Source: an uncultured bacterium
GTDB lineage: Bacteria; Desulfobacterota_D; UBA1144; Nemesobacterales; UBA2774
NCBI GenBank assembly: GCA_963825135.1
Contig: CAWGRW010000009.1
Coordinates: 1,481,410 to 1,545,409 of the forward strand
Direction of reading: 5' to 3'
Length of the DNA: 64,000 bases
This document shows positions 1,064-57,388 of this stretch, in pieces (positions within the stretch are counted from its first letter, which is position 1; every line of letters starts with the position of its first letter). Below the pieces are notes generated by a model. The model saw only the letters and a program-made list of their open reading frames with translations, was not told where the DNA came from and did no database searches. A program made the translations under genes and the position numbers.

Positions 1064-2143
1064 TCATTCGACGTCTATGGAGGACGCGACTTTTCCCGTT
1101 TCAGGATTGTAAATATATTCCCCGCCCAGAGGGTGGGCCGGGAAATCCGTTGTTGTCTGCAGTTCTATGAATTTTCTGAGCTCGTCCATATTCTTCGGAT
1201 AATCACCGTATAGCTTATTATATCTGGCCGACTTTGCATTCAGAAAATTTATATCCTCATCGATCTTCCGCTTGGATAATTCCGAGCTTTTGATCGCCCC
1301 GATCTTGGGCGCCAGAATGAATTTGCCTCCCATCGGGGCCTCCGGAATCCCGTTTTTCAACACGCCGGCCCTGACCATGTCTTCGAGCCCGGAGGGGGGC
1401 TTTCCATAGGTTTTGACGTACTCGCGGAGGGACTCGGTCAGTTTGTCTTCGAGGGACATGGTATCTATCTCCTCTATATTTCTCAGAGCGAAGTTCCTTC
1501 TCCCTTCGCTCGGGCTCGTTTCGTAGATTATTTCCCAGATTTTCCTCGAAAGCTCCCTGTTCCCGCCCTTCGCATGGGCCGACGCGGCCATGCCCTTCAT
1601 CGAGGCTGCCCTCAATGGGGAAATGCCCGGCTTCTCGGACGCTTCCTTGAACAGCTCTGCCGACTTTTCGTAGTCCTTCGGGTAGAAATAGTATATAAAG
1701 GCTTCCTCCAGGGGCAGGTTGTAGTTCCCGGGGTTGTTCTTCCTCCCTTTGTCGAGGAGCTCTATCCCTTTCTTCGTCTCGCCGAGCCCGAAAGGCGGAG
1801 GTTCGGCCAGGAAAGTGCCTCCGTACCTGTATGCGTTTATGAACTTCGGGTCGAGATCCGTGATGATATCGAAGTAGTGATAAAGCAGGTCGGAGTTCAG
1901 GTCAGCGGGTTTCTCTCCGCCGAAGTACTGGAGCGCCCGTATCCAGTAAATGTCGGCCAAAATCTCATAATATCCCAGGGACAGCTTTTTCAGGGACGAC
2001 GAAGATATGTAGAGGCTCCCTTCGACAGACCGGAACTTGCCCCTTATTTCGTCTATCCTTATCTGAAACGGAATCGATACCGCTACCAGCACGGCCAGAA
2101 TGACGAGGGCGACAACAGGCTTTCTGGATGATATGACGGACAT
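1064..2143 (-). CDS. Hypothetical membrane-anchored protein with an N-terminal TM helix and TPR-like repeats. Last gene of the ABC-2 transporter operon.
   Basis: 359 aa, N-terminal hydrophobic helix (PVVALVILAVLVAVSIPF). A 4-nt gap to the upstream ABC-2 permease gene suggests co-transcription. I recognised no family. Confidence 0.45.
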   Translation of the reverse strand: MSVISSRKPVVALVILAVLVAVSIPFQIRIDEIRGKFRSVEGSLYISSSSLKKLSLGYYEILADIYWIRALQYFGGEKPADLNSDLLYHYFDIITDLDPKFINAYRYGGTFLAEPPPFGLGETKKGIELLDKGRKNNPGNYNLPLEEAFIYYFYPKDYEKSAELFKEASEKPGISPLRAASMKGMAASAHAKGGNRELSRKIWEIIYETSPSEGRRNFALRNIEEIDTMSLEDKLTESLREYVKTYGKPPSGLEDMVRAGVLKNGIPEAPMGGKFILAPKIGAIKSSELSKRKIDEDINFLNAKSARYNKLYGDYPKNMDELRKFIELQTTTDFPAHPLGGEYIYNPETGKVASSIDVE

Positions 2144-13255: not shown

Positions 13256-13933
13256 ATGGATAGGCGTATATCGAGGGTCCTGCAGTCTTCTCTTTTCATT
13301 CTAACGCTCTATTCCTTGTCCTGCGCGACTATTACCGTCAACGTGTATTTTCCGGCGGAAGAGGTCAGGGAGGCTTATTCGAACCTGGAGGACGAGTTCC
13401 TCGATCAGGGCTCAAAGGGTAACGCCGGTTCCGAGAAAAAACAGCCGGTCGAAAACAAACCCGCGCCCTCGCCCTCACCGTCCCCTCAGAGTATGAGAAA
13501 GTATCAGGACAAGCCGGCTCTCTCGTCGGAGAGGAAATATCTCGTAATCAAAAAAGAGATATCACTCGATTTCAGCGACTATGCCTGGGCTCAGGGCAAT
13601 ATAGCCCAACAAATCACCCAGAAGATACGCAGCATGCCGGATGTTATCCAGGCTTATAAGCGGAGGTCCCAGCGCCTGGGCGAAATAAATCAGATGCTCT
13701 CTCAGGGTCTCGTCGTGGAAGGCAACCAGGGGCTGCTCATTCAGAAAGGCAGTCTAGCCCCGGGGCAGACACAGGCCCTCAACGCGGAGAACGCCGACCG
13801 TCAGGTGATTATCAGGGGGATGGCGAAGGCGATAGTGGAGATTAATAACATAGACCCCACGCCTGAAAATATAGATAAGGTGCTCCCTGAGGCAGCAAGG
13901 CAGTTCGCGAGCGTGAGGCAGAGCGAGAGGTAG
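13256..13933 (+). CDS. Lipoprotein with a C-terminal DUF1318 (YdbL-like) domain
   Basis: Lipobox LYSLS|C, a Pro/Ser-rich linker (PAPSPSPSPQ), and a C-terminal …QGLVVEGNQGLLIQKG…NAENADRQVIIRGMAKAIVEIN… resembling the YdbL/DUF1318 motif (GxVGE…GYL…N..R..IY..IA). Confidence 0.5.
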   Translation: MDRRISRVLQSSLFILTLYSLSCATITVNVYFPAEEVREAYSNLEDEFLDQGSKGNAGSEKKQPVENKPAPSPSPSPQSMRKYQDKPALSSERKYLVIKKEISLDFSDYAWAQGNIAQQITQKIRSMPDVIQAYKRRSQRLGEINQMLSQGLVVEGNQGLLIQKGSLAPGQTQALNAENADRQVIIRGMAKAIVEINNIDPTPENIDKVLPEAARQFASVRQSER

Positions 13934-14163: not shown

Positions 14164-15417
14164 ATGCGCCCGAGAATAGTTCTCCTGGCCGTCATAGCAG
14201 TGTTAACCGCCTTTGCTCCTCTTACGTCGGACGCAAAGAAGTTGTTTGTCGCCAATATAAAAGTCGATGACGAGGTGGAATTCGAGGGCACGGACAGTCT
14301 TTTCAAGGTCGTCGATTTTTTTGACAACAAATCGCTCAAGGAATTCTTCCCGGATTACACGTCGAATTCCGCCGTATTGGCGAGGGTCGATCTGAGGGGG
14401 ATCGATCTCGAAGTAGAGTATCATCAGAATTCGTCGGTCCTTATCGTCAGGATACCTTCAAAAAATTTCGAAGTCAGATTCGAGGGGGCAAACCGCAACC
14501 AGAGCCAGGAGCAGTTCGAGGACTGGCTCAAAGGCGATTTCGAATCCCTTACGGCTCCGAGCGGGAAGCTTACGACGCTCCTCCACATAGTTGTGGCGAA
14601 CTCCCCTGTCGAGCCCGTCGCGGGGAACCCGAACAGTCTTCTGACCAGGATGTTCCTGTCCGATTTCAACGCGGGCATAACAGGGCCCTTTATCAGCTCC
14701 GGAAAACGCGTGGAGGGGAATCAGAACTTCCTCACGCTCGGCGGAGAGTTCGGATTCTTCAACGCGGGCCCTTACGACGGCCAGGTGCTGAATTTCCCGA
14801 TAAATTACAAGTGGAATTTCAAAGGGTGGCCGAAGCTCTCGTGGATATTCGACCTCCCCGTAACGCTTACGAGGGACGAGACGGGGTGGGCTTACATGGC
14901 TTCCTTCGGCACGGGCTTCCAGTTCAGGCCTTACAAATGGTGGAGCATCACCCCGATGGGTCGTATAGGCGGGGTCGGTTCTTTCGACGTGGGGGCGCTG
15001 GCGGTTCTGGTTTCGGGGAGTCTTACGAATTATTTCCAGGGCAGTATCGGCTCCACGAACCTCGGCTTCGGGACGATGACGGGCATATCGACTACGATAG
15101 ACGGGATCAAGGTGGGGGGTTACGACCTCAGCTACGAGCTTACGAATTACGTGCTCCGTAACGGCGGCAACCTGACTCAGAAGCTCAATTTTAATTTCCT
15201 CGGGAACCCCGCGGCGTTCAAGCTCTTCCTTAACCACACGAAATTCTGGGGCAACGAGCTCTACCTGAATTCCTTTTTCGATATGGGGCTCGCATTCGTA
15301 ACGATAAAGAAGGTCGCGGATTCCTTCGTGGAGGCGCTCGACCTTTCGTTCACGTTCTCCGCGGGCGTCGATAACGACTACAACAATTACAGCATTCAAT
15401 TGACTTACCGTTTCTGA
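14164..15417 (+). CDS. Outer-membrane beta-barrel protein (hypothetical)
   Basis: Signal peptide MRPRIVLLAVIAVLTAFAPLTSDA. Alternating-hydrophobic beta-strand pattern in the C-terminal 250 aa. Terminal …QLTYRF (aromatic-x-Phe OMP signature). Confidence 0.55.
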   Translation: MRPRIVLLAVIAVLTAFAPLTSDAKKLFVANIKVDDEVEFEGTDSLFKVVDFFDNKSLKEFFPDYTSNSAVLARVDLRGIDLEVEYHQNSSVLIVRIPSKNFEVRFEGANRNQSQEQFEDWLKGDFESLTAPSGKLTTLLHIVVANSPVEPVAGNPNSLLTRMFLSDFNAGITGPFISSGKRVEGNQNFLTLGGEFGFFNAGPYDGQVLNFPINYKWNFKGWPKLSWIFDLPVTLTRDETGWAYMASFGTGFQFRPYKWWSITPMGRIGGVGSFDVGALAVLVSGSLTNYFQGSIGSTNLGFGTMTGISTTIDGIKVGGYDLSYELTNYVLRNGGNLTQKLNFNFLGNPAAFKLFLNHTKFWGNELYLNSFFDMGLAFVTIKKVADSFVEALDLSFTFSAGVDNDYNNYSIQLTYRF

Positions 15418-18084: not shown

Positions 18085-19047
18085 TTAAGAGGCCGGTTTA
18101 ATGTTTTCCTTGACTACCCTCAGAAAATTACCGCCCATGATTTTTCTCACTCTGCTCTCGGAGTATCCTTTCTTCTGGAAATAATCAGCTATCTTCGGCA
18201 GGTCCGCGATCCTTCTCAGGTCTTCGGGGAAGTCCTCGATCCTGGCCCCGTCCATGTCGCTCCCAATGCCCACGTGGTCCTCGCCGCAAAGATTGACTAT
18301 ATAGTCCGCATGCCTGAACACGTCTTCCACCGTGGGCGTGCTATCCCCCGTCCTGAGGAACTGGTTATAGAGCACGATCCCGATGACTCCCCCTCTTTCC
18401 GAGATAGCGAGGAGCTGGTTGTCTTTCAGGTTCCTCGGGTGCTCGGTGAGCGACCTCGCGTTTGAGTGCGAGGCTATGGGTATGAGACTCGTGAGCCGTA
18501 TCGCTTCCCAGAACCCCTTTTCGTTGATATGAGAGAGGTCGAGCGTGATATGGAGCTCGTTCATTCCCTTTATCAGCTCCCTCCCCTCGTCCGTGAGCCC
18601 TTCTTCGGTCTCGTTCCCCGAGGCGTATCGGTTCTTATCGTTCCATGTAAGCCCTATCAGCCTCACTCCCCGTTCGTAGAATTCACCGAGCTTGTCAGGG
18701 CCTTCAATCGGGTCAGCACCCTCCACGAGCGTAAGGAACCCGGTTCTCCCGTCGGAGCCTGTACTCATGAGGTCCTCACGCGTCTTTATCTGAAAGACTT
18801 CGTCTTTATGCTCTTTATAAATCCTGTCGTATGTGTCGAACTGACGGAGCGCCGATTCGAGCGTCTTTTCCGGCTTGTGTTTAGGGTGTACGAATATTGT
18901 ATTGAATACGAGACGGATGTTGGCTTCTTTCATCCAGGGGAGTGTGATCATGCAGGGTACGGAGGGGCTAACGAAGTCCCTGTCGTAGTAGTTTAAATGG
19001 AACGCGATGTCTTCGTGCGCGTCGAGTATGAATAAATCCTTAAGCAC
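18085..19047 (-). CDS. Membrane dipeptidase (peptidase family M19, renal dipeptidase-like)
   Basis: N-terminal ILDAHEDI zinc-binding motif, …IASHSNARSL…, …HVGIGSDMDG… are typical M19 motifs. 320 aa. Confidence 0.8.
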   Translation of the reverse strand: MLKDLFILDAHEDIAFHLNYYDRDFVSPSVPCMITLPWMKEANIRLVFNTIFVHPKHKPEKTLESALRQFDTYDRIYKEHKDEVFQIKTREDLMSTGSDGRTGFLTLVEGADPIEGPDKLGEFYERGVRLIGLTWNDKNRYASGNETEEGLTDEGRELIKGMNELHITLDLSHINEKGFWEAIRLTSLIPIASHSNARSLTEHPRNLKDNQLLAISERGGVIGIVLYNQFLRTGDSTPTVEDVFRHADYIVNLCGEDHVGIGSDMDGARIEDFPEDLRRIADLPKIADYFQKKGYSESRVRKIMGGNFLRVVKENIKPAS

Positions 19048-19098
19048 TATTTCCCGCCTGTTCCCGATAATTTCTATTCGAGCCCTTGTGTCTTCCGG

Positions 19099-20340
19099 CT
19101 AGATATAAAACCCCATGCTCGCGTAACTCACTACCGACCCCGTATCCGGCTCGAGCGCCTGCCCGTAATCGAGCAGCTTACCCCTCTCCGCGTCGATCGC
19201 CGCGAGCGTCGCGTATATAGGTGAGAGCCCGCAGACCTTCCGCCAGTCCTTCTCCTCCTCGACGGAGCGGTAAAACCCCTCGGCGTCCATCTTCTCGCCG
19301 AAGGAGAGGCTCAGCATGTCTCTTTCTCTTATCTTGCCGAGCGTGAGATCGTTTACGGGTTCTTTGTCCCCGAACTTGAGCCCCACGTGGGCCATGTCCG
19401 CCCCCGCGATTATAAAGACGTTATCGCCCGTATCCCTTACGATCCCCGCGACCGCTTCGAGAAAGACGGATATGTATTCGTCCTCGGCCGGCGATCTGCC
19501 GTCCATGACCAGTCTGTAAAACGAGTTGCAGAGTACGGGCACTATTTTGTATTTCTTTTTTCCGTTCAGCATATGCTGAAGGAACGCGACCTGGAACTCT
19601 ATCGAATGCTCGGTACGGTGCGAGATCTCGCCATCATACAAATCCCATCCGCACGCTCCTTCGAGCTTCTCGATTATCTTCCTGTCCGTTTCAGCTTCCC
19701 CGAGGGGCGTCATAAAGTTCTTTCTGGTCAGGATAAACGGGTTTTCCACTTCGGCATAATGAGAGGTGCCGAAGATAATAAATGTATCCGCTTCGTTTTC
19801 CCGAAGCAGTTCCCTGTATGCGAGCGCGTACGATACACCGCCCCTCCCGTAGTCGATATGAGGGGAAATCAGCCCCCGTAACTTTCCGGGGGTTTCTTCA
19901 TAGGGCCGGCTCTCTTCCGCCTTGCCGAAAAAGGCCTTAAACCATCTGTCGAGCTCCTTCGGGTCACCGGGGTACGACAGGCCCGCGTGGCTCGACTCCC
20001 TCGTCACCGCTTCCCGGAAACCGGATTCAAGCCGGTGCTTATAGTCCCTGAAATTTTCGCTTTCGAGAAAGAGCGCTTCGTCGAGCTGTTCTATTAAATC
20101 CTCTATTTCGTCCGATAGCACAAGCTCCCCGAACCTCTCCATGCAGAGCGACTGAATATCGCGGACGGTCTTTGTCCCGTCGAAGAGGCTCAATATCCTG
20201 AGAGTATCTATCGGGACTGCGAGGATCTTATCCGACAGGTTCTGCGGGTCCCTCAGGCATATGATCCTCTCCCCTTCGACCTCCGCGGGGACGGCCTCGA
20301 CGTATCTCAGTCTCGGATATTCAAGAGTTTTATCGGTCAT
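19099..20340 (-). CDS. Fusion protein: N-terminal PqqD-like RRE (peptide-recognition) domain plus C-terminal MEMO1 / AmmeMemoRadiSam system protein B-like domain
   Basis: N-terminal residues about 15-110 (…RYVEAVPAEVEGERIICLRDPQNLSDKILAVPIDTLRILSLFDGTKTVRDIQSLCMERFGELVLSDEIEDLIEQLDEALFLE) align motif-for-motif with PqqD (LNETAAxILELxDGxRxVxxIIxxLxERF…VxEFLxxL). The C-terminal part carries Memo-family motifs (SHAGLSYPG, ISPHIDYGRGGVSYA, IFGTSHYAE, AGADMAHVG). Start set at M8 so that ATG overlaps the upstream HyuB stop (ATGA coupling). Confidence 0.65.
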   Translation of the reverse strand: MTDKTLEYPRLRYVEAVPAEVEGERIICLRDPQNLSDKILAVPIDTLRILSLFDGTKTVRDIQSLCMERFGELVLSDEIEDLIEQLDEALFLESENFRDYKHRLESGFREAVTRESSHAGLSYPGDPKELDRWFKAFFGKAEESRPYEETPGKLRGLISPHIDYGRGGVSYALAYRELLRENEADTFIIFGTSHYAEVENPFILTRKNFMTPLGEAETDRKIIEKLEGACGWDLYDGEISHRTEHSIEFQVAFLQHMLNGKKKYKIVPVLCNSFYRLVMDGRSPAEDEYISVFLEAVAGIVRDTGDNVFIIAGADMAHVGLKFGDKEPVNDLTLGKIRERDMLSLSFGEKMDAEGFYRSVEEEKDWRKVCGLSPIYATLAAIDAERGKLLDYGQALEPDTGSVVSYASMGFYI

Positions 20341-21905
20341 GCGTTTTTTGGTCTCCCCCACCCGCCCCCGCCGGGCGTCCTGATTTCGAGCACGTCCCCT
20401 TTGCTTACCGCGAACGTTGACTTGGGAGGTATAACGGATGATTTCCCCTTTCTCAAGAGGGTGTTCCTGCCTCTCATTCCCCGCCCTCCGCCTTTAATGC
20501 CGTAAGGCGCCGATTTCCTGCGCTCGGTTATGAGAGAAACGGTCGCGTCCGTGAGGAACCTGTACTTCCTGACGATGCCGTCTCCCCCCCTGAACCTTCC
20601 GCCGCCTCCGCTGTTTTTACGTATGGAATACGCATCTATCATGACGGGGAGCTCCCTCTCGAGCGCCTCAATCGGGGTATTGAGTGTATTGGTCATATGC
20701 GTCTGGACGGCGCTCACGCCGTCCTTCCCGTACCTCCCGCCCATGCCGCCCGCGATGGTTTCGTAGTAGGCGAAGTTCCTGCCGTTCCCGGGGTTCACCC
20801 CCCCGAACGTCGTATTGCTCATGGTGCCCGCGCTCGCCGCCTGGATCTTTTCGGGGACGGCTTTTGAAAGCGCTCCGAACACAATATCGACGACGCGCTG
20901 CGAGGTCTCTACGTTTCCCCCGACTACCGCCGCCGGGAATTCGGCATTTAATATGGAGCCCTTTTCAGCTTTGATATCTATTACCCTCAGCGGCCCCGAG
21001 TTAAGCGGCATGCCTTCCGGGGCAATGCACTGAAATGCATATACAGTAGCTGCTGTCGTCACGCTGAAGGGTGCGTTCAAACAGCCCTTCACCTTCTCGG
21101 ACGACCCTCTGAAATCCACGACCGCTTTTTCTCCTTTAATGCTTACGGAAACCCTTAGAGGTATATTCCTGGTCCCCGCCCCGTCGTCGTCGAGGACGTC
21201 TTCGAACGTATAAACCCCGTCGGGAATATTGTCGATAACATTCCTCATCATTTTTTCGCTGTACCCGAGGAGCCCCTCAGCCGCTTCTTTTATCTTTTTT
21301 AGCGAGTACTTCGCGGTGACTTCCTTTAACCTTCTTATCCCGAGTTCGAGCGAGCCTGACTGCGCCCTCAGGTCTCCTTCCCTTTCTTCCGGGTCGCGCG
21401 AAGCGGACAGGATGCCTTCAAAGAGAGACCGGTTCAGCTTCCCTTTCTTATATAGTCTCGACGGGGGGATCAAAATCCCTTCTTCGTGTATCGATGTGGA
21501 CAGCGGCATCGAGCCCGGCGTGAGGCCCCCCATGTCCGCGTGGTGGGCGCGTGAGGCGACGAAGAATTCAAGCGTGCCGTTTACCATTACCGGCGCTATG
21601 CATGTGACGTCGGGCAGGTGTGTCCCGCCCCTGAATGGGTCGTTAAGTATGAAGACGTCTCCCTCCGCTATCCCCGGCTCTCCGATAATCGCTTTCACCG
21701 CGAAGCTCATCGAGCCCAGGTGTACGGGGATGTGCGCCGCCTGCGCGATCATTTCCCCCGTGGCTTTGAATATCGCGCAGGACAGGTCTCTCCGCTCCTT
21801 TATATTGGGCGAGAACCCGGCGCGTATGAGGACGACCCCCATTTCCTCGGCGATCGAGCTGAGCGCGTTCTGAAATATTTCGAGTTCGAATGGGCTAAGG
21901 GGCAT
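20337..21905 (-). CDS. Hydantoinase B / oxoprolinase B family protein (HyuB-like); no HyuA partner in the window
   Basis: Classic HyuB motifs: …IAQAAHIPVHLGSM…, …GDVFILNDPFRGGTHLPDVT…. 522 aa. Confidence 0.85.
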   Translation of the reverse strand: MPLSPFELEIFQNALSSIAEEMGVVLIRAGFSPNIKERRDLSCAIFKATGEMIAQAAHIPVHLGSMSFAVKAIIGEPGIAEGDVFILNDPFRGGTHLPDVTCIAPVMVNGTLEFFVASRAHHADMGGLTPGSMPLSTSIHEEGILIPPSRLYKKGKLNRSLFEGILSASRDPEEREGDLRAQSGSLELGIRRLKEVTAKYSLKKIKEAAEGLLGYSEKMMRNVIDNIPDGVYTFEDVLDDDGAGTRNIPLRVSVSIKGEKAVVDFRGSSEKVKGCLNAPFSVTTAATVYAFQCIAPEGMPLNSGPLRVIDIKAEKGSILNAEFPAAVVGGNVETSQRVVDIVFGALSKAVPEKIQAASAGTMSNTTFGGVNPGNGRNFAYYETIAGGMGGRYGKDGVSAVQTHMTNTLNTPIEALERELPVMIDAYSIRKNSGGGGRFRGGDGIVRKYRFLTDATVSLITERRKSAPYGIKGGGRGMRGRNTLLRKGKSSVIPPKSTFAVSKGDVLEIRTPGGGGWGRPKNA

Positions 21906-21968
21906 CGGATTAGCTCTCCGCTGCTTTTCCCGGCAGCGGTTGCGGGTCTGTGGCCGAAGAGCCGATTG

Positions 21969-22430
21969 TTATTCCGGCTGGGGCGCGGAAGGCGTCATGG
22001 TTTCCAGGTTCGAGTATCTGCATAGCTCGGAGGCGTAGTACCTTACCCGGGTGCTTTCCCCGAGATCTGCCTTCGGGCTTCCCGGAATGATGTGACTGCC
22101 GTTCTTGCATTCCTGCGCGACCTTTAGAAACGGCACCGGCGCAAGGTCGCCCGGTCCGTATTTGCCCTTTATGTTCTTTTCTACTTTCACGGTAGCGTTA
22201 CATTTCGACACCGTCTCGGGAATAAAATCCGCTGCGCCTTCGTCGGACGCTCTGCATTCTCCCGAATCGTAAGGCTTCCCGCATTCGATTTTCACGACCG
22301 TCCCCTCGACTGCGTAATCGGAGCTATTGAGGAGATCCTCCCGGGAGCAAGGGGGCGGGATAGCGCGGACGCTTACCGCTCCGATAGCGAATAAAGTAAA
22401 AATGAGTGGTATTATTAACTTGTTTTTCAC
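21969..22430 (-). CDS. Secreted cysteine-rich hypothetical protein
   Basis: Signal peptide MKNKLIIPLIFTLFAIGAVSVRA; 6 Cys in the roughly 130-aa mature part. No family recognised. Confidence 0.45.
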   Translation of the reverse strand: MKNKLIIPLIFTLFAIGAVSVRAIPPPCSREDLLNSSDYAVEGTVVKIECGKPYDSGECRASDEGAADFIPETVSKCNATVKVEKNIKGKYGPGDLAPVPFLKVAQECKNGSHIIPGSPKADLGESTRVRYYASELCRYSNLETMTPSAPQPE

Positions 22431-22521
22431 CCTGATTATACTAATGTATTGTGCTTTTATTCGTTGTCAAACGAAATCTTCAAAGCGGAGAAATTTGGCA
22501 TGCAAGGGGACGATAAATAGA

Positions 22522-23473: not shown

Positions 23474-24343
23474 TTAGCTTATCGCCTCTTTCAGGGTCTC
23501 CCCCATCTCTGCAGGGCTCGGGCATACCCGCACCCCCGCTCTTTCTAGCGCCGCTACCTTGTCCTTGGCGCTTCCCGAGCTTCCCGATATGATCGCCCCC
23601 GCGTGTCCCATCCTTTTCCCTTTGGGGGCGGTCGCTCCGGCTATAAACGCAACTACGGGTTTTGACATATGGCTCTTGATGAATTCGGCAGCTTCCTCTT
23701 CCGCGCTTCCGCCGATCTCGCCTATCATCACTACAGCGTCCGTATCCTTGTCCTTTTCAAATAGCTTCAATATGTCGATGAACGTCGAGCCGATTATAGG
23801 GTCTCCGCCAATCCCGACGCTTGTGGACTGCCCTATGCCGAGGTTGGACAGCTGCCATACGGCCTCATAAGTGAGCGTGCCGCTGCGGGAGATAATGCCT
23901 ATTCTTCCGGGCGTGTGTATGTATCCGGGCATAATGCCTACCTTCGCTTCGCCGGGCGTCATCACTCCGGGGCAGTTGGGCCCCACGAGACGCGCCTTCT
24001 TGCCCTTCAGGTACTCCTTTACCTTAATCATGTCCTGCGTCGGGACGCCTTCGGTGATACATATTACGAGCTCGATCCCGGCGTCTATAGCCTCCACCAT
24101 CGAATCCATCGCGAACGGGGCGGGTACGAATATAAGAGACGCGTTAGCCCCGGTCTTTTTGACTGCGGCCGCCACTGTGTCGAATACGGGGAACCCCTCG
24201 ACCTCTGTCCCGCCTTTCCCCGGCGTGACTCCGCCCACGACCTTCGTGCCGTATTCGCGGCACTGTGTGGCGTGGAACAGGCCCGCGCTCCCGGTAATCC
24301 CCTGAACTATTACTTTTGTATTTTTATTGACCAGGATACTCAT
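23474..24343 (-). CDS. sucD: Succinyl-CoA synthetase alpha subunit (SucD-like CoA-binding / ligase-CoA protein)
   Basis: …[12 protein letters not shown]…, …[20 protein letters not shown]…, catalytic His region …[13 protein letters not shown]…. No sucC adjacent. Confidence 0.8.
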
Positions 24344-26052: not shown

Positions 26053-27333
26053 ATGAAAATTAGAGAACCGGTGATCCTGCTTACTTTACTCTTCATAGCC
26101 TCGATTTCGTTAAGCCTCGGAGTCCCGAGGAATTTCGGCAGCGAAATCGGATTTGTGAACGATTACGGTGACAAACTTGTCTATGCCGCCAGGGGTTCCT
26201 GGTACCCGTACTCGAATAATCCATATACGGATATCCCGAGCGAATATCCCCAGGCCGCTACCTATTTCTTCGCCGTGCCTTATATGGTATTGGGCTCTCC
26301 GGGTTCTTTCGACACGCACCTGATCGCGCAGATCGAGCGCTTTGTTAACAGCAATCCTCAGACTAATCCCAACCTGCCGTCTTCTCCGCATCTCAGGAAC
26401 AGGCTCTTCATGCGCTATTCGCTCGTCTTTTCGCTGCTCATGGTCCCGTTCCTATTCTTTTCGATACTGATCGTTTACAACCTGAGGCCCGAAAGGAAGT
26501 ACCTCGCATACCTCATGCTCCTTCCGGCCGGGCTATTCTTTACCCACAACAGGTTCGATATAATTCCCGCTTTCCTCGGACTTCTGGCCGTTTTCCTGCT
26601 TTCAAAAAACAGATTCAAGCTGTCGGCGTTCGTAATAGCGTTCGGGTTTCTTACGAAGTGGTACCTCGCGCTCCTGCTTCCCGTATTTCTCGCCTACTAT
26701 TACACTCAGAGGAGAAAAATCAACTGGCCGATGGTCCTCGTCTTCGCGGTAACCTGCCTGGCTGTCCTCGTTCCTACTTTCCTGGCAGGCGGCCTGAACG
26801 GGCTCTTCGCTCCTTATATCGCCCAGCTCTCCCGCGACCTTGACCAGCCGTCCTTGTTTTTCCTCGTGTCCATGCTTCTCGACCGGGGCTTCGGTCTAGA
26901 TATCGACAATTTCTATCTCGCGGCCGCGTCGCTCGCACTTCAGTTCTCGGTGATACCGCTCTGCGTGACGAGCAGGGTCGATTCCCTGGACAAGGTGATC
27001 AGGTGGTCATCGTTATCCATTCTGGTGTTCATCATATTCGCCCGGATAAATTCTCCGCAGTGGATTTTGTGGGTCAGTCCCATGCTTATCTTGATTGCGG
27101 GCAGGGGGATGTTCATAGCGGGCATTGTCCTCCTCGACCTGCTGTCCTACATCCAGTTCCCCGTGCTCTTTTATCTCCGCTCTTACAGCGAGTCGTATTA
27201 CAATCTCTTCCTCCTGGCGTTTTCAGTCAAGCTCGCATTACTTATCTTGTTCGCCGTTTATCTATTCGGGGGCCTGATAGGGGATAATCCGGTTTTCGCC
27301 CGCCTGCGGGGCCGGAAGGCGGATCAGTCCTGA
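26053..27333 (+). CDS. Polytopic membrane protein, GT-C-fold glycosyltransferase-like (DUF2029/GT87-like)
   Basis: 426 aa with more than 10 TM helices and a conserved loop region (…DIIPAFLGLLAVFLLSKNRF…). Resembles PIG-M/GT87-type mannosyltransferases; tentative. Confidence 0.45.
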   Translation: MKIREPVILLTLLFIASISLSLGVPRNFGSEIGFVNDYGDKLVYAARGSWYPYSNNPYTDIPSEYPQAATYFFAVPYMVLGSPGSFDTHLIAQIERFVNSNPQTNPNLPSSPHLRNRLFMRYSLVFSLLMVPFLFFSILIVYNLRPERKYLAYLMLLPAGLFFTHNRFDIIPAFLGLLAVFLLSKNRFKLSAFVIAFGFLTKWYLALLLPVFLAYYYTQRRKINWPMVLVFAVTCLAVLVPTFLAGGLNGLFAPYIAQLSRDLDQPSLFFLVSMLLDRGFGLDIDNFYLAAASLALQFSVIPLCVTSRVDSLDKVIRWSSLSILVFIIFARINSPQWILWVSPMLILIAGRGMFIAGIVLLDLLSYIQFPVLFYLRSYSESYYNLFLLAFSVKLALLILFAVYLFGGLIGDNPVFARLRGRKADQS

Positions 27334-55088: not shown

Positions 55089-56339
55089 ATGGAAAAGCTG
55101 ATACTGACTGCCGAAACGGTTCTGCCTGTTTCCTCCAAACCCTTGAAAAACGCATCCGTACTGATCTCAGGCGGAAAGATCAGGGAGATCGGAAAATCCG
55201 CGGCCCTCAGGAAACGCTATAAAGGTATTAACGAAATGGACCTCGGAAAGGGGATACTCCTGCCCGGCTTCGTCAATGCCCATACCCATCTTGAGCTAGG
55301 GTGGATGCACGGGAGGCTCCGCGGCTTCAGGGGCTTCACAGGCTGGCTCGGGCAGATAATAAAGGAAAAAAGGGCGGGCGTTACAATCGGAGAGATAATA
55401 ACATCGGTAGCGGACGGAATCGAAGCTAACATCCGTTCGGGGGTTACGACCGTAGGGGAAATATCCTCATACGGCGGCCTGGACAAACCGCTCCTTAAAT
55501 CCTCGGGGTTAAGGGCGGTGCTCTTCAAAGAAATACTCGACAGCAATGAACGGCGGACGGATTTCTCGTCTCTCGAAAAGGGCGCGCTCTTCGAGGAAAG
55601 GCTCTTCCCGCATTCACCATATTCGTGCAGTCCAGGGGTGCTGAAAAAAACGCTCAGGTCTCACAGGCGGAACGGCGTCCCCCTCGGCATCCACCTTGCC
55701 GAGAGCCCGGACGAGGTAAAGTTCGTGAGGGGTGAGGAAAACAGCATCGAAAACAAGATATTCCCGCTTATAGATAAAACACCCTTCAGAAGGCCCCCGT
55801 CGGACTCGCCTGTCTCGTATCTCGGGAAACTGGGCCTGCTCGACGGCACGAGAATCACTCTCGTTCACATGGTGCAGGTGAGCGTGAAAGAGGCGCGGGA
55901 GCTGCGCGAGCACGACGCGGCCCTGGTTCTTTGTCCGAGGAGCAATTTTTTTCTTCAGGTCGGGGCCCCTCCCGTAAAGGAATACGCGAAGTTCGAAAGG
56001 ATAGGAATGGGGACAGACGGTTTGTCGAGCAACTATAATCTCGACTTTTTCGAGGAGATGAGGTTCCTGCATCTCCTCATGTCGGAGTCCCAGGGGCAGA
56101 GGGCCGCGTATGTTGCCGTCTATGCGGCGACGCTCGGGGGGGCAGGGGCCCTCTATCTCGAGCGTAAGACCGGCAGCATCGAGCCCGGAAAAGAGGCCGA
56201 CCTGATATTCCTCGATAACGGCGCCGGATCGGGCGACCCGTATCTCTCCGTGATTTCATCGACCGCGCGGAATGTCGGAATGGTCATGGTCCGCGGCGAA
56301 ATTATCCACTCCGGAAAAGCTGCGCGTCCGAACAGGTAG
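55089..56339 (+). CDS. Amidohydrolase-superfamily protein (MTA/SAH- or aminofutalosine-deaminase-like, or chlorohydrolase-like)
   Basis: Metal-binding LLPGFVNAHTHLELG, later …HLAES…, …GMGTDG… motifs of the amidohydrolase_1 family. 416 aa. Subfamily not resolved. Confidence 0.7.
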   Translation: MEKLILTAETVLPVSSKPLKNASVLISGGKIREIGKSAALRKRYKGINEMDLGKGILLPGFVNAHTHLELGWMHGRLRGFRGFTGWLGQIIKEKRAGVTIGEIITSVADGIEANIRSGVTTVGEISSYGGLDKPLLKSSGLRAVLFKEILDSNERRTDFSSLEKGALFEERLFPHSPYSCSPGVLKKTLRSHRRNGVPLGIHLAESPDEVKFVRGEENSIENKIFPLIDKTPFRRPPSDSPVSYLGKLGLLDGTRITLVHMVQVSVKEARELREHDAALVLCPRSNFFLQVGAPPVKEYAKFERIGMGTDGLSSNYNLDFFEEMRFLHLLMSESQGQRAAYVAVYAATLGGAGALYLERKTGSIEPGKEADLIFLDNGAGSGDPYLSVISSTARNVGMVMVRGEIIHSGKAARPNR

Positions 56340-56341
56340 AG

Positions 56342-57388
56342 ATGTCGGGTCTAATCGATAAAATCTTCGTTTACGGCACGCTCCAGCGCGGGGAAGAGAG
56401 GAGCTGCTACATGCGGGACTGCAGGCTCTCGGGGATACTCGAGGTCCCCGGGCGACTATACGATACGGGGCGGGGGTACCCGGCCGCAGTATTCGACGGC
56501 GAATCGGACTCTACGGTGTCGGGCGAGCTCTACATCATGGAGAGCCCGACTTTGAGGATCGAGGAGCTCGACAGGGTGGAGGGGGTCAGCTCGGGCCTCT
56601 TCAGAAGGTCGAGGATCAAAAACCCCGTCGCGGAATTTTTCTGCTACGAGCCCGGGCCTCTGTTAAAGGACGTCGTCTCCGGCGGGAACAGGATTCAGGA
56701 CGGGATATGGAGGACTCACTCGTCACTCGCTTTCACCGACCCCGTCGATTTCGCGCTCAGGTTCGAGTCGCATATAAAAAATAGTTACAAAGTGCATGCG
56801 GAGGAAGGCACGGACGGGATACATCATATAAAAGGACGCGTCCCTGTCATCGTCACGGCCCCTCACGCGACCGCGCACGTGCGCATGGGCAGTTTGAAGA
56901 GGCAGGAGTTCTACACGGGGGCGCTCGCCGTCATGCTTCATTCCCTGACGGGGTGTCATGCGCTCTATACGGACAGGCTGTCTCCGATAGACCCCAATTA
57001 CTCGGACGAATCCCCGTTTAAGGCGAGACTCTCCGAAATAGCGGGGAGATACGGGATAGTATTTTTACTCGACCTGCACGGCACAGGCACTGAAAGTCCG
57101 GGCGACGTCTTCCCCGGAGCGGGAAGCGGCAGGGAGTTCCTAAACGGCGGTCACCGAATATTTGACGAGCTGAATAATGCTGCCGCATCAAACGGCATAT
57201 CGCTCGGCTCTGAGGACGTATTCCCGGCTCAGAGGCAGATGACCGTTACAAGGTTCTCGGCGGCAAGATTGGGCATACCCTCGATGCAGCTCGAAATAGG
57301 CGGGGGTCTCAGGCAGCCGGGGAGTGCGCCCGGGGATTTCACGAGGCTCGTGAATTTTCTGAGGGAATTTATCGGGCGTGTTTGTTGA
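56342..57388 (+). CDS. Two-domain protein: N-terminal gamma-glutamylcyclotransferase-like (AIG2/GGACT) plus C-terminal N-formylglutamate-amidohydrolase/gamma-PGA-hydrolase-like domain (tentative)
   Basis: N-terminus IFVYGTLQRGEERSCYM…GELY…RIEELDRVEG matches the GGCT-like fold (YGTL…E). C-terminal half has …PVIVTAPHATAHV…, …LLDLHGTG…, …MQLEIG… resembling FGase-family zinc amidases. Only a 2-nt gap to the upstream amidohydrolase. Confidence 0.5.
   Translation: MSGLIDKIFVYGTLQRGEERSCYMRDCRLSGILEVPGRLYDTGRGYPAAVFDGESDSTVSGELYIMESPTLRIEELDRVEGVSSGLFRRSRIKNPVAEFFCYEPGPLLKDVVSGGNRIQDGIWRTHSSLAFTDPVDFALRFESHIKNSYKVHAEEGTDGIHHIKGRVPVIVTAPHATAHVRMGSLKRQEFYTGALAVMLHSLTGCHALYTDRLSPIDPNYSDESPFKARLSEIAGRYGIVFLLDLHGTGTESPGDVFPGAGSGREFLNGGHRIFDELNNAAASNGISLGSEDVFPAQRQMTVTRFSAARLGIPSMQLEIGGGLRQPGSAPGDFTRLVNFLREFIGRVC

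Follow-up and report, generated by a model that had tools for sequence, protein, structure and literature searches.

Genomes of the Candidatus Dadabacteria type carry a lineage-specific gene cluster in which a hydantoinase B-like subunit (HyuB) without an adjacent HyuA is followed by a fusion of a PqqD-like RRE domain to a Memo domain (RRE-Memo) and by an M19 dipeptidase. We tentatively read this cluster as a set of probably co-transcribed cytosolic enzymes for the turnover of small peptides and their by-products, as opposed to dedicated peptide maturation. This reading, to which we give slightly less than even confidence, treats "peptide turnover" as a loose common theme.

Organization of the locus

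Within the 64-kb stretch of DNA analysed here (the window), four minus-strand genes follow one another from 5' to 3': an open reading frame (ORF) for a 153-aa Cys-rich protein with a signal-peptide-like N-terminus and six cysteines (21969 to 22430), HyuB (522 aa, PF02538; 20337 to 21905), the RRE-Memo fusion (413 aa from an ATG start; 19099 to 20340) and the M19 dipeptidase of the renal-dipeptidase family (PF01244; 18085 to 19047). All four sets of coordinates were confirmed, as were the identities given in the initial annotation (HyuB, RRE-Memo, M19 and a secreted six-Cys ORF) and the tight linkage that it described. The Memo-like ORF (19099 to 20361, minus strand) opens with GTG, but the start picked by gene callers in RRE-Memo orthologues is ATG, which in the window lies in frame at 20340 (GCATGACC); here the TGA stop of HyuB overlaps the Memo start as ATGA. 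This 4-nt overlap is found in the window copy and in two related loci (L001 and L002). Exactly 51 bp separate the stop of Memo (19099) from the start of M19 (19047), and intergenic gaps across the cluster measure 43, 51, 63 and 91 bp.

Just 5' of the 153-aa ORF lies a sigma-70-like promoter match (22443 to 22470, minus strand; TTGACA, 16-nt spacer, TACATT; 10/12, a match to consensus only), the sole minus-strand promoter-like site between 17900 and 22700. Since the promoter/terminator scan of the same interval returned no minus-strand terminator-like site inside the cluster, a single four-gene transcript fits this layout, and the ATGA overlap, together with gaps of at most 63 nt in 20 loci, suggests co-translation and co-transcription. 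A hairpin in the 63-nt stretch separating the Cys-rich gene from HyuB is no more stable than folds of shuffled sequence (z=-0.59) and is conserved in close relatives only. Also encoded in the window is a protein with a GGACT domain; enzymes of this type release 5-oxoproline.

Gene order is conserved within one clade

The initial annotation had set conservation of gene order in related genomes as a check, and this was found, inside the lineage only. In all 29 testable Dadabacteria-type loci, RRE-Memo comes after HyuB on the same strand, and of the 25 with room for M19 after RRE-Memo, 23 have it there; order and strand are kept even where HyuB identity falls to 65% and Memo identity to 43%. Three loci in which all flanking markers are replaced (L012, L014 and L023) keep the order as well, including L012, where it survives the replacement of both flanks. 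These loci all belong to one subclade and therefore represent approximately one rearrangement event. The wider neighbourhood (SucD, epimerase, Icd, SecDF, TGT and DapB) is likewise syntenic in close relatives, so simple inertia explains much of the conservation. In five loci of the clade, 2-4 kb of unrelated genes, some of them in the opposite orientation, separate HyuB from RRE-Memo, and L023, L014 and L015 have lost or displaced M19.

Outside the Dadabacteria-type clade, the order HyuB, RRE-Memo, M19 was not found in 56 HyuB outgroup loci or in 77 RRE-Memo loci, and the closest outgroup HyuB genes, from other phyla and at 50-56% identity, had a Memo or M19 gene beside them in 0 of 56 loci. 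Given this lack of co-occurrence and the insertions in five loci, the linkage of the three genes may be neutral.

HyuB is conserved without an adjacent HyuA

The PF02538 match spans the full length of HyuB (profile positions 2-519 of 519, E=4.5e-205), and among solved structures the closest to it are the HyuB portion of a fused N-methylhydantoinase (7hk5, E=5e-85) and the caprolactamase subunit CapB (6yra_B). Residues D40, H96, D99 and H121 align to the CapB metal ligands D41, H99, D102 and H124 (PMC8453981), and this Asp-His-Asp-His quartet does not vary across 25 Dadabacteria-type and 56 outgroup sequences (81 in total). Judged by sequence, the protein would belong to an ATP-dependent lactamase of the hydantoinase B/oxoprolinase family as the subunit that contains the metal and carries out hydrolysis or "coupling", here encoded without an adjacent HyuA.

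The local absence of HyuA noted in the initial annotation was borne out by Pfam scans of the large ORFs in the 64-kb window and by tblastn with seven HyuA proteins (E<=1e-3); tblastn likewise returned no HyuA in 31 Dadabacteria-type loci. A full-length family match, the CapB tetrad and nearest relatives in canonical HyuA-HyuB operons link the window protein to known HyuA/HyuB lactamases (OplAB-type 5-oxoprolinase, N-methylhydantoinase and CapAB), from which it differs in that no hyuA lies next to it or is fused to it, in the window as in the 31 related loci. Among the 56 closest outgroup loci, 52 have a canonical HyuA directly upstream of HyuB. In one outgroup genome (L029), hyuB likewise lacks an adjacent hyuA.

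Accelerated or relaxed evolution of the Dadabacteria HyuB, tested by identity and conserved columns, was not found. The protein keeps 115 of 124 family-conserved columns (93%) versus 116 of 124 (94%) in a HyuA-linked control clade, and it is nearly as similar to outgroups (47-56% identity) as outgroup phyla are to one another (51-64%). Since constraint on HyuB is not relaxed, we argue that a HyuA partner persists; retention of the metal tetrad, with constraint equal to that of HyuA-linked relatives, makes a HyuA elsewhere in the genome likely. In caprolactamase, the CapA-CapB interface buries ~3000 A2, and it is CapA that contains the ATP site (PMC8453981). Unlinking has parallels in L029 and in the window itself, which contains sucD and, within its 64 kb, no sucC. 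From the constraint, the CapAB interface and these two parallels, HyuA is probably encoded elsewhere in the genome rather than dispensable. In the supplements to a paper on marine Dadabacteria genomes, no KO or COG entry for hyuA or hyuB is listed; we found no paper connecting Dadabacteria to hydantoinase or oxoprolinase, and none of the papers found mentions an orphan hydantoinase B.

In B. subtilis, the genes of one 5-oxoproline-type cluster are ordered ycsF-ycsG-ycsI-kipIA. The outgroup HyuAB loci resemble this cluster and pxpTABC in being flanked by an NRAMP-family transporter gene and a DUF1445/D-Glu-cyclase gene, and differ from pxpTABC in that the lactamase is of the HyuAB and not the PxpABC type. 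In 17 of the outgroup HyuA-HyuB loci, the gene directly downstream is of the NRAMP family, and a D-Glu_cyclase/putative hydro-lyase gene adjoins HyuAB in two different phyla. The NRAMP-family protein PxpT/YcsG is the 5-oxoproline uptake system of pxp clusters (PMC13274462), and the outgroup gene scores below the NCBIfam cut-off for MntH, a score that does not separate a Mn2+ transporter from the 5-oxoproline type. By analogy, the outgroup HyuAB neighbourhood, with its NRAMP and D-glutamate-cyclase genes, is probably of the 5-oxoproline type. Together with the HyuA-HyuB pairing of the closest relatives and the GGACT-domain protein of the window, it favours a 5-oxoproline-type ancestry for the Dadabacteria HyuB. 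Neither the window nor the Dadabacteria loci contain NRAMP or DUF1445 accessory genes.

RRE-Memo is a large, normally stand-alone family

The PF01875 match in the Memo-like ORF covers residues 123-416 only, leaving an N-terminal extension of ~115 aa. The RRE domain (20065 to 20319, minus strand) occupies approximately residues 8-92 when the ATG at 20340 is taken as the start, and the Memo domain lies at 19114 to 19995. In the window copy, the match of the extension to the PqqD profile PF05402 (E=0.025, 15.3 bits) is below the cut-off of 23.4, whereas ~15 orthologues at ~62% identity carry PF05402; among 29 diverse family members, none matches at E<=0.01. The AlphaFold model of the domain has the topology beta-beta-beta-alpha-alpha-alpha, with a three-stranded sheet and a three-helix winged-helix fold. 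The predicted topology supports a PqqD-like RRE fold for the extension, in line with the initial annotation.

The Memo domain shows both the PF01875 match and a LigB-like fold, and its MEMO1-type metal-site motifs are intact: PH, SH, D..H and CG align with MEMO1 and are invariant or nearly so in two family alignments. The corresponding MEMO1 residues are H49, H81, D189, H192 and C244 (His/His/Asp/His/Cys). At the profile for AmmeMemoRadiSam system protein B (TIGR04336, cut-off 26), the window protein scores 125.7 bits, while a genuine B-A fusion scores 295 bits. Unlike MEMO1 and system protein B, the window protein has an additional RRE and no AMMECR1 or radical-SAM partner nearby; tblastn found neither an AMMECR1 nor a system radical-SAM gene in the window or the Dadabacteria-type loci. 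On these grounds, RRE-Memo appears to be a paralogous subfamily distinct from system protein B, and the name "AmmeMemoRadiSam system protein B" that NCBI gives to its members misleads. In the literature, we found the term AmmeMemoRadiSam mentioned only in passing.

Full-length RRE-Memo fusions account for all of the best 150 representatives of clusters at 50% identity, to which the window protein aligns along its entire length at 33-45% identity; the family thus comprises at least 150 such clusters, with 1301 matches below E=1e-30. It corresponds to RREFam044 "Memo_RRE" of the 2025 RRE-Finder update, where the fusion is only listed, termed "unprecedented in RiPPs" and given no function (PMC12710340). 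The window protein shares with RREFam044 the N-terminal PqqD-like RRE followed by Memo (PF01875), and is set apart by its HyuB and M19 flanks, which occur only in the Dadabacteria-type clade.

RRE-Memo is a large, normally stand-alone family. The 80 metagenomic RRE-Memo loci fall into 34 clades with varied immediate neighbours, and HyuB, HyuA and M19 are all absent from 77 of them. Across the 80 loci there is no universal neighbour and no conserved small ORF near RRE-Memo. The gene lies directly beside Lon in 17 loci and beside an M20 peptidase in 6, each set being a single clade, and these adjacencies hint at a recurring context of peptide turnover.

The M19 dipeptidase is predicted to be cytosolic

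The M19 protein matches PF01244 over positions 3-319 of 319 (E=6e-85), and solved M19 enzymes of bacteria and fungi, among them the bacterial dipeptidases 3fdg and 3neh, GliJ and Sco3058, match it with E=1e-27 to 1e-36. The motifs AHED, VEGAD, SHSN and GSDMDG are visible in its sequence. It shares the full-length family match with known M19 dipeptidases (renal dipeptidase, Sco3058, GliJ), but differs from them in having neither a signal peptide nor a membrane anchor. A cytosolic location is predicted from the missing signal peptide.

The upstream Cys-rich protein is probably unrelated

The 153-aa protein belongs to a lineage-restricted orphan family, in which the six cysteines are invariant in 26 homologues and the motif NG(S/T)HIIPGSP is found. 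Its predicted fold is a disulfide-rich beta-barrel, nearest to NTR/TIMP modules. The initial annotation had left open whether this protein is unrelated to its neighbours or a substrate or partner of them. It is probably functionally unrelated to the enzyme trio, sharing a promoter region with it in one subclade only; its signal peptide, predicted barrel fold and patchy occurrence argue against the substrate role. We consider it extremely unlikely that the locus is a RiPP-like cluster with this protein as the RRE substrate. The gene does lie directly upstream on the same strand, apparently behind the same promoter, and its product is lineage-restricted, as RiPP precursors often are. However, a Sec-type signal peptide on a well-predicted beta-barrel is unlike a leader-core precursor, neither the subclade with other flanks nor any of the other RRE-Memo loci has the gene, and all three enzymes lack export signals.

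A working model and its alternatives

On the turnover reading, HyuB would be the metal-site subunit of a putative ATP-dependent lactamase of the 5-oxoprolinase type. In caprolactamase, the ATP-activated intermediate passes from the HyuA-type subunit through an internal tunnel to the HyuB site (PMC8453981). By extension, HyuA would activate the lactam with ATP and the intermediate would travel through the tunnel to the Asp-His-Asp-His site of HyuB for hydrolysis. In the Dadabacteria-type ancestor, hyuB would have become separated from hyuA, and HyuB most likely still acts with an unlinked HyuA. From its family membership, M19 would cleave dipeptides in the cytosol, and RRE-Memo presumably holds a peptide on its RRE and acts at the His/His/Asp/His/Cys metal centre of Memo.

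The three genes could also be mere neighbours, brought together by an accident that was fixed in the Dadabacteria-type ancestor; their roles would then be unrelated and of a housekeeping kind, HyuB working with an unlinked HyuA and RRE-Memo doing whatever it does where it stands alone. We regard this as somewhat unlikely, although several observations favour it. The co-occurrence is confined to one clade, the wider SucD-to-DapB neighbourhood is also syntenic, the trio is interrupted in five loci and has lost or displaced M19 in three, the replaced-flank loci count as about one rearrangement, and RRE-Memo neighbours differ across 34 clades. Accidental adjacency does not readily account for the ATGA overlap and short gaps (<=63 nt in 20 loci), for an order that outlived the replacement of both flanks in L012, or for the presence of RRE-Memo beside a peptidase in two other clades (Lon and M20).

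The pathway suggested in the initial annotation, which processes a pyroglutamyl or otherwise cyclised peptide, is not supported by our results. In its explicit form, the RRE would recruit such a peptide, HyuB would open the lactam without HyuA, perhaps in a complex with RRE-Memo, and M19 would trim the product. The absence of HyuA from the window and all 31 related loci, the support for the RRE fold and the retention of the trio throughout the clade all speak for this scheme, as does the translational coupling of HyuB and RRE-Memo, which mimics the HyuA-HyuB overlap of outgroups. It is nonetheless improbable. The 43-91 bp gaps are too small for a precursor gene, and no conserved small ORF was found in the 80 loci. 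Insertions interrupt the association in five loci, and the 77 non-Dadabacteria-type RRE-Memo loci lack it. HyuB remains under unrelaxed constraint, and its sequence gives no sign that its partner or function has changed; because the characterised HyuB site receives an ATP-activated intermediate through an internal tunnel, a peptide-bound lactam would not fit the HyuA-to-HyuB route (PMC8453981). Very improbable, too, is the proposal that Dadabacteria have lost HyuA altogether, and that HyuB was recruited by RRE-Memo and together with M19 opens and dismantles an RRE-held lactam peptide, such as one bearing a pyroglutamyl group at its N-terminus; if true, no HyuB before this one would have acted independently of HyuA, and the widespread RRE-Memo family would gain its first function.

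Implications for HyuB and the RRE-Memo family

Should HyuA prove to be absent from complete Dadabacteria genomes, the biochemistry of HyuB would need rethinking. The main lead from this locus is RRE-Memo itself, a large family present in many uncultured lineages that has so far been listed rather than studied. The Dadabacteria locus is one of the few sites at which RRE-Memo has stable, annotatable neighbours, namely a lactamase subunit and a dipeptidase. Taken together with the Lon and M20 peptidases beside it in two other clades, the HyuB and M19 neighbours point to a role for RRE-Memo in peptide or protein turnover rather than in natural-product synthesis.

Organization of the cluster

Four minus-strand ORFs lie head to tail at 18085-22430: a 153-aa Cys-rich ORF without a family match (21969-22430), HyuB of 522 aa (20337-21905; PF02538 end to end, E=4.5e-205), a Memo-like ORF of 413 aa from its ATG (19099-20340; PF01875, with ~115 N-terminal residues outside the match) and an M19 dipeptidase of 320 aa (18085-19047; PF01244, E=6e-85). 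In GCATGACC the stop codon of HyuB overlaps the ATG of Memo as ATGA, and 51 bp separate Memo from M19. The whole 64-kb window contains no HyuA; on this point, as on the four ORFs, the overlap and the gap, our analysis bears out the initial annotation. A signal peptide is found on the 153-aa protein and on none of the three enzymes. Directly 5' of the 153-aa ORF is a promoter-like site (TTGACA, 16-nt spacer, TACATT; consensus match only), while a consensus scan found no terminator-like site on the minus strand inside the cluster. A 7-bp hairpin (CCGCTGC, loop CGGGAAAA, GCAGCGG) lies in the 63 nt that separate the Cys-rich gene from hyuB (21906-21968, minus strand) and shows one compensatory change, G-C to A-T, in close relatives; its stability is not above that of shuffled sequence, it has no T-tract and it is not kept in more distant loci.

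Gene order is conserved within one clade

MAGs assigned to Candidatus Dadabacteria and 'Thermodesulfobacteriota' supply the nearest proteins. The 31 loci of this Dadabacteria-type clade span 65-94% HyuB identity, with Memo identity as low as 43%. RRE-Memo follows HyuB on the same strand in 29/29 testable loci, at a distance of <=63 nt in 20, 199-869 nt in 4 and 2.1-3.8 kb in 5, and M19 is next in line in 23/25 loci with room for it. In close relatives the entire neighbourhood is syntenic (SecDF, TGT, DapB, YicC, SucD, epimerase, Icd), and much of the conservation of the cluster is therefore inertia. One subclade (L012, L014, L023) has exchanged all flanking markers and has MetF and UbiE on the upstream side, yet HyuB, RRE-Memo and M19 are still together. 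Its HyuB and RRE-Memo genes are set apart by three insertions: a PNPOx-like gene, a 155-aa ORF and a gene for a CGNR zinc-finger regulator. Since these loci represent roughly one rearrangement event, they are weak evidence for selected proximity. The putative regulator, a ~207-aa ABATE + CGNR protein (PF07336 and PF11706), is encoded directly upstream of RRE-Memo (L012 13265-13888, plus strand; also L014, L015, L018 and L023) and may control the RRE-Memo/M19 pair in its subclade.

Scanning species-representative genomes yielded 56 more HyuB loci (50-56% identity) in lineages that include Aminicenantes, Aquificota, Deferribacterales, Methylomirabilales and Bryobacterales. Neither Memo nor M19 is encoded within 10 kb in any of them, and in 52 the gene immediately upstream encodes a canonical HyuA (about 660 aa), commonly with a 4-nt overlap. 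For RRE-Memo, a profile search of a clustered library returned 8951 matches (1301 below 1e-30); the top 150 cluster representatives are without exception full-length fusions and share 33-45% identity with the window protein. Among 80 metagenomic RRE-Memo loci, falling into 34 clades with differing neighbours, HyuB or M19 occurs in only three, all Dadabacteria-type; the other 77 lack HyuB, M19 and HyuA, and no conserved small ORF adjoins RRE-Memo in the 80. The initial annotation had made the case for more than coincidence depend on gene order being conserved in related genomes, and this holds inside the clade and fails outside it (0/56 HyuB and 0/77 RRE-Memo loci). Peptidases are immediate neighbours of RRE-Memo in three separate clades: a co-oriented Lon gene immediately upstream in 17 loci of one (L096, L102, L104, L106, L107, L109, L117, L136, L143 and others), an M20 peptidase 12-15 nt upstream in six loci of another (L152-L155, L159, L164), and M19 in Dadabacteria.

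HyuB and its likely partner

In caprolactamase, the ATP site of the HyuA-like CapA is connected by a 40-A tunnel to the metal site of the HyuB-like CapB (Asp41/His99/Asp102/His124), and the CapA/CapB interface buries about 3000 A2 (PMC8453981). D40, H96, D99 and H121 of the window HyuB align with these ligands, and the tetrad is invariant in 81/81 compared sequences. Dadabacteria HyuB is 47-56% identical to the outgroups, versus 51-64% between outgroup phyla, and keeps 115/124 of the columns that are conserved among HyuA-linked reference proteins, versus 116/124 in a HyuA-linked control clade; neither measure shows a sign of altered constraint. Among 55 outgroup loci with sequence upstream of HyuB, the sole hyuB without an adjacent hyuA is that of a Hydrogenothermaceae MAG (L029 9989-11566, plus strand), where it comes directly after gyrB and hyuA is absent within 10 kb. 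The window region holds a second obligate two-subunit enzyme with unlinked genes: sucD (succinyl-CoA ligase alpha subunit; 23474-24343, minus strand) stands without sucC, for which tblastn with a Pfam-validated SucC query found no match in the 64-kb window or any fetched locus. Judging from these sequence comparisons, HyuA is probably encoded elsewhere in the Dadabacteria genome.

An NRAMP-family gene lies directly downstream of HyuA-linked HyuB relatives at 17 loci, overlapping the HyuB stop, and a D-Glu_cyclase/putative hydro-lyase gene adjoins HyuA-HyuB operons in two different phyla (operons with accessory genes: L064 73-4403, L073 1965-6577, L034 7981-12749). These accessory gene types mirror those of pxp 5-oxoprolinase clusters; ycsI of the B. 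subtilis pxp-type cluster is a DUF1445 protein. Uptake of 5-oxoproline in pxp clusters requires the NRAMP-family PxpT/YcsG (PMC13274462). The comparison suggests that this HyuAB subfamily has 5-oxoproline-type substrates and is a 5-oxoprolinase, although the NRAMP gene could not be told apart from Mn2+ transporters.

At 56342-57388 (plus strand), ~35 kb from hyuB, a 348-aa protein carries an N-terminal GGACT/AIG2-like gamma-glutamyl cyclotransferase domain (PF06094, E=3.5e-13), with its C-terminal ~220 aa outside the match. GGACT-type enzymes release 5-oxoproline, and the protein fits a peptide-turnover theme only circumstantially; the preceding gene (55089-56339) encodes an aminofutalosine-deaminase-like amidohydrolase, so the GGACT gene and hyuB are probably unrelated. 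Four further sizeable ORFs have no Pfam match: 14164-15417 (plus strand; signal peptide, ending ...YRF like an outer-membrane barrel protein), 26053-27333 (plus strand; a polytopic membrane protein), 1064-2143 (minus strand) and 13256-13933 (plus strand).

The RRE-Memo fusion

PqqD (PF05402) matches the Memo extension below threshold (E=0.025); some 15 orthologues (roughly 62% identical) have a precomputed match, and none of 29 diverse family members matches at E<=0.01. An AlphaFold model from a 31-sequence alignment (mean pLDDT 81.7) has an N-terminal domain of three strands followed by three helices, a predicted structure that indicates an RRE more clearly than the sequence evidence does. 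The PH, SH, D..H and CG motifs of the Memo domain are intact and align with the MEMO1 metal site. A 2025 RRE-discovery paper called Memo-like/RRE fusions 'unprecedented in RiPPs' and supplied an HMM, RREFam044 Memo_RRE, without an assigned function (PMC12710340).

Against AmmeMemoRadiSam protein B the window protein scores 126 bits, whereas a genuine B-A fusion at an RRE-Memo locus (L089) reaches 295 bits; AMMECR1 and radical-SAM partners are lacking near the window protein. It is not a canonical AmmeMemoRadiSam protein B, and the annotation-pipeline name is therefore misleading. In L089 (3059-4495, plus strand) RRE-Memo lies 63 nt downstream of that fusion (TIGR04336 295 bits, TIGR04335 196 bits), so two distinct Memo paralogues coexist. 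Another RRE-Memo locus, L100, has a weak glycyl-radical-activase-like radical-SAM gene upstream.

Interpretation of the cluster

The 153-aa protein has 51 detectable homologues, all within the Dadabacteria-type clade and all annotated hypothetical, with six cysteines and an NG(S/T)HIIPGSP motif invariant. A role as substrate for the cytosolic enzymes is unlikely, because the protein is exported and folded, and its gene is missing from the replaced-flank subclade and from every other RRE-Memo locus. These properties likewise make a RiPP cluster, with an RRE protein acting on the Cys-rich protein as its substrate, highly improbable.

The data establish what the genes encode, that their catalytic motifs are intact and that they are tightly packed in an order kept across the clade; they also show that the association is lacking elsewhere and that there is no precursor gene. 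We tentatively favour a loose functional grouping of genes for peptide and amino-acid turnover. In it HyuB would act as a 5-oxoprolinase-type lactamase together with a HyuA encoded at another site, M19 would be a cytosolic dipeptidase and RRE-Memo would bind a peptide; the common theme would be that small peptides and their cyclised by-products are turned over. That the three genes are mere neighbours without a functional tie is a somewhat less likely reading. The dedicated cyclised-peptide pathway of the initial annotation, with HyuB independent of HyuA, has no HyuA in the window to contradict it, but HyuB keeps the constraint of HyuA-linked relatives, and we consider this pathway improbable.

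Every gene of the cluster is a member of a known family. The cluster was undescribed until now, and the evidence that it works as a system is weak; it is valuable mostly as a clue, from gene context, to what the RRE-Memo family does.
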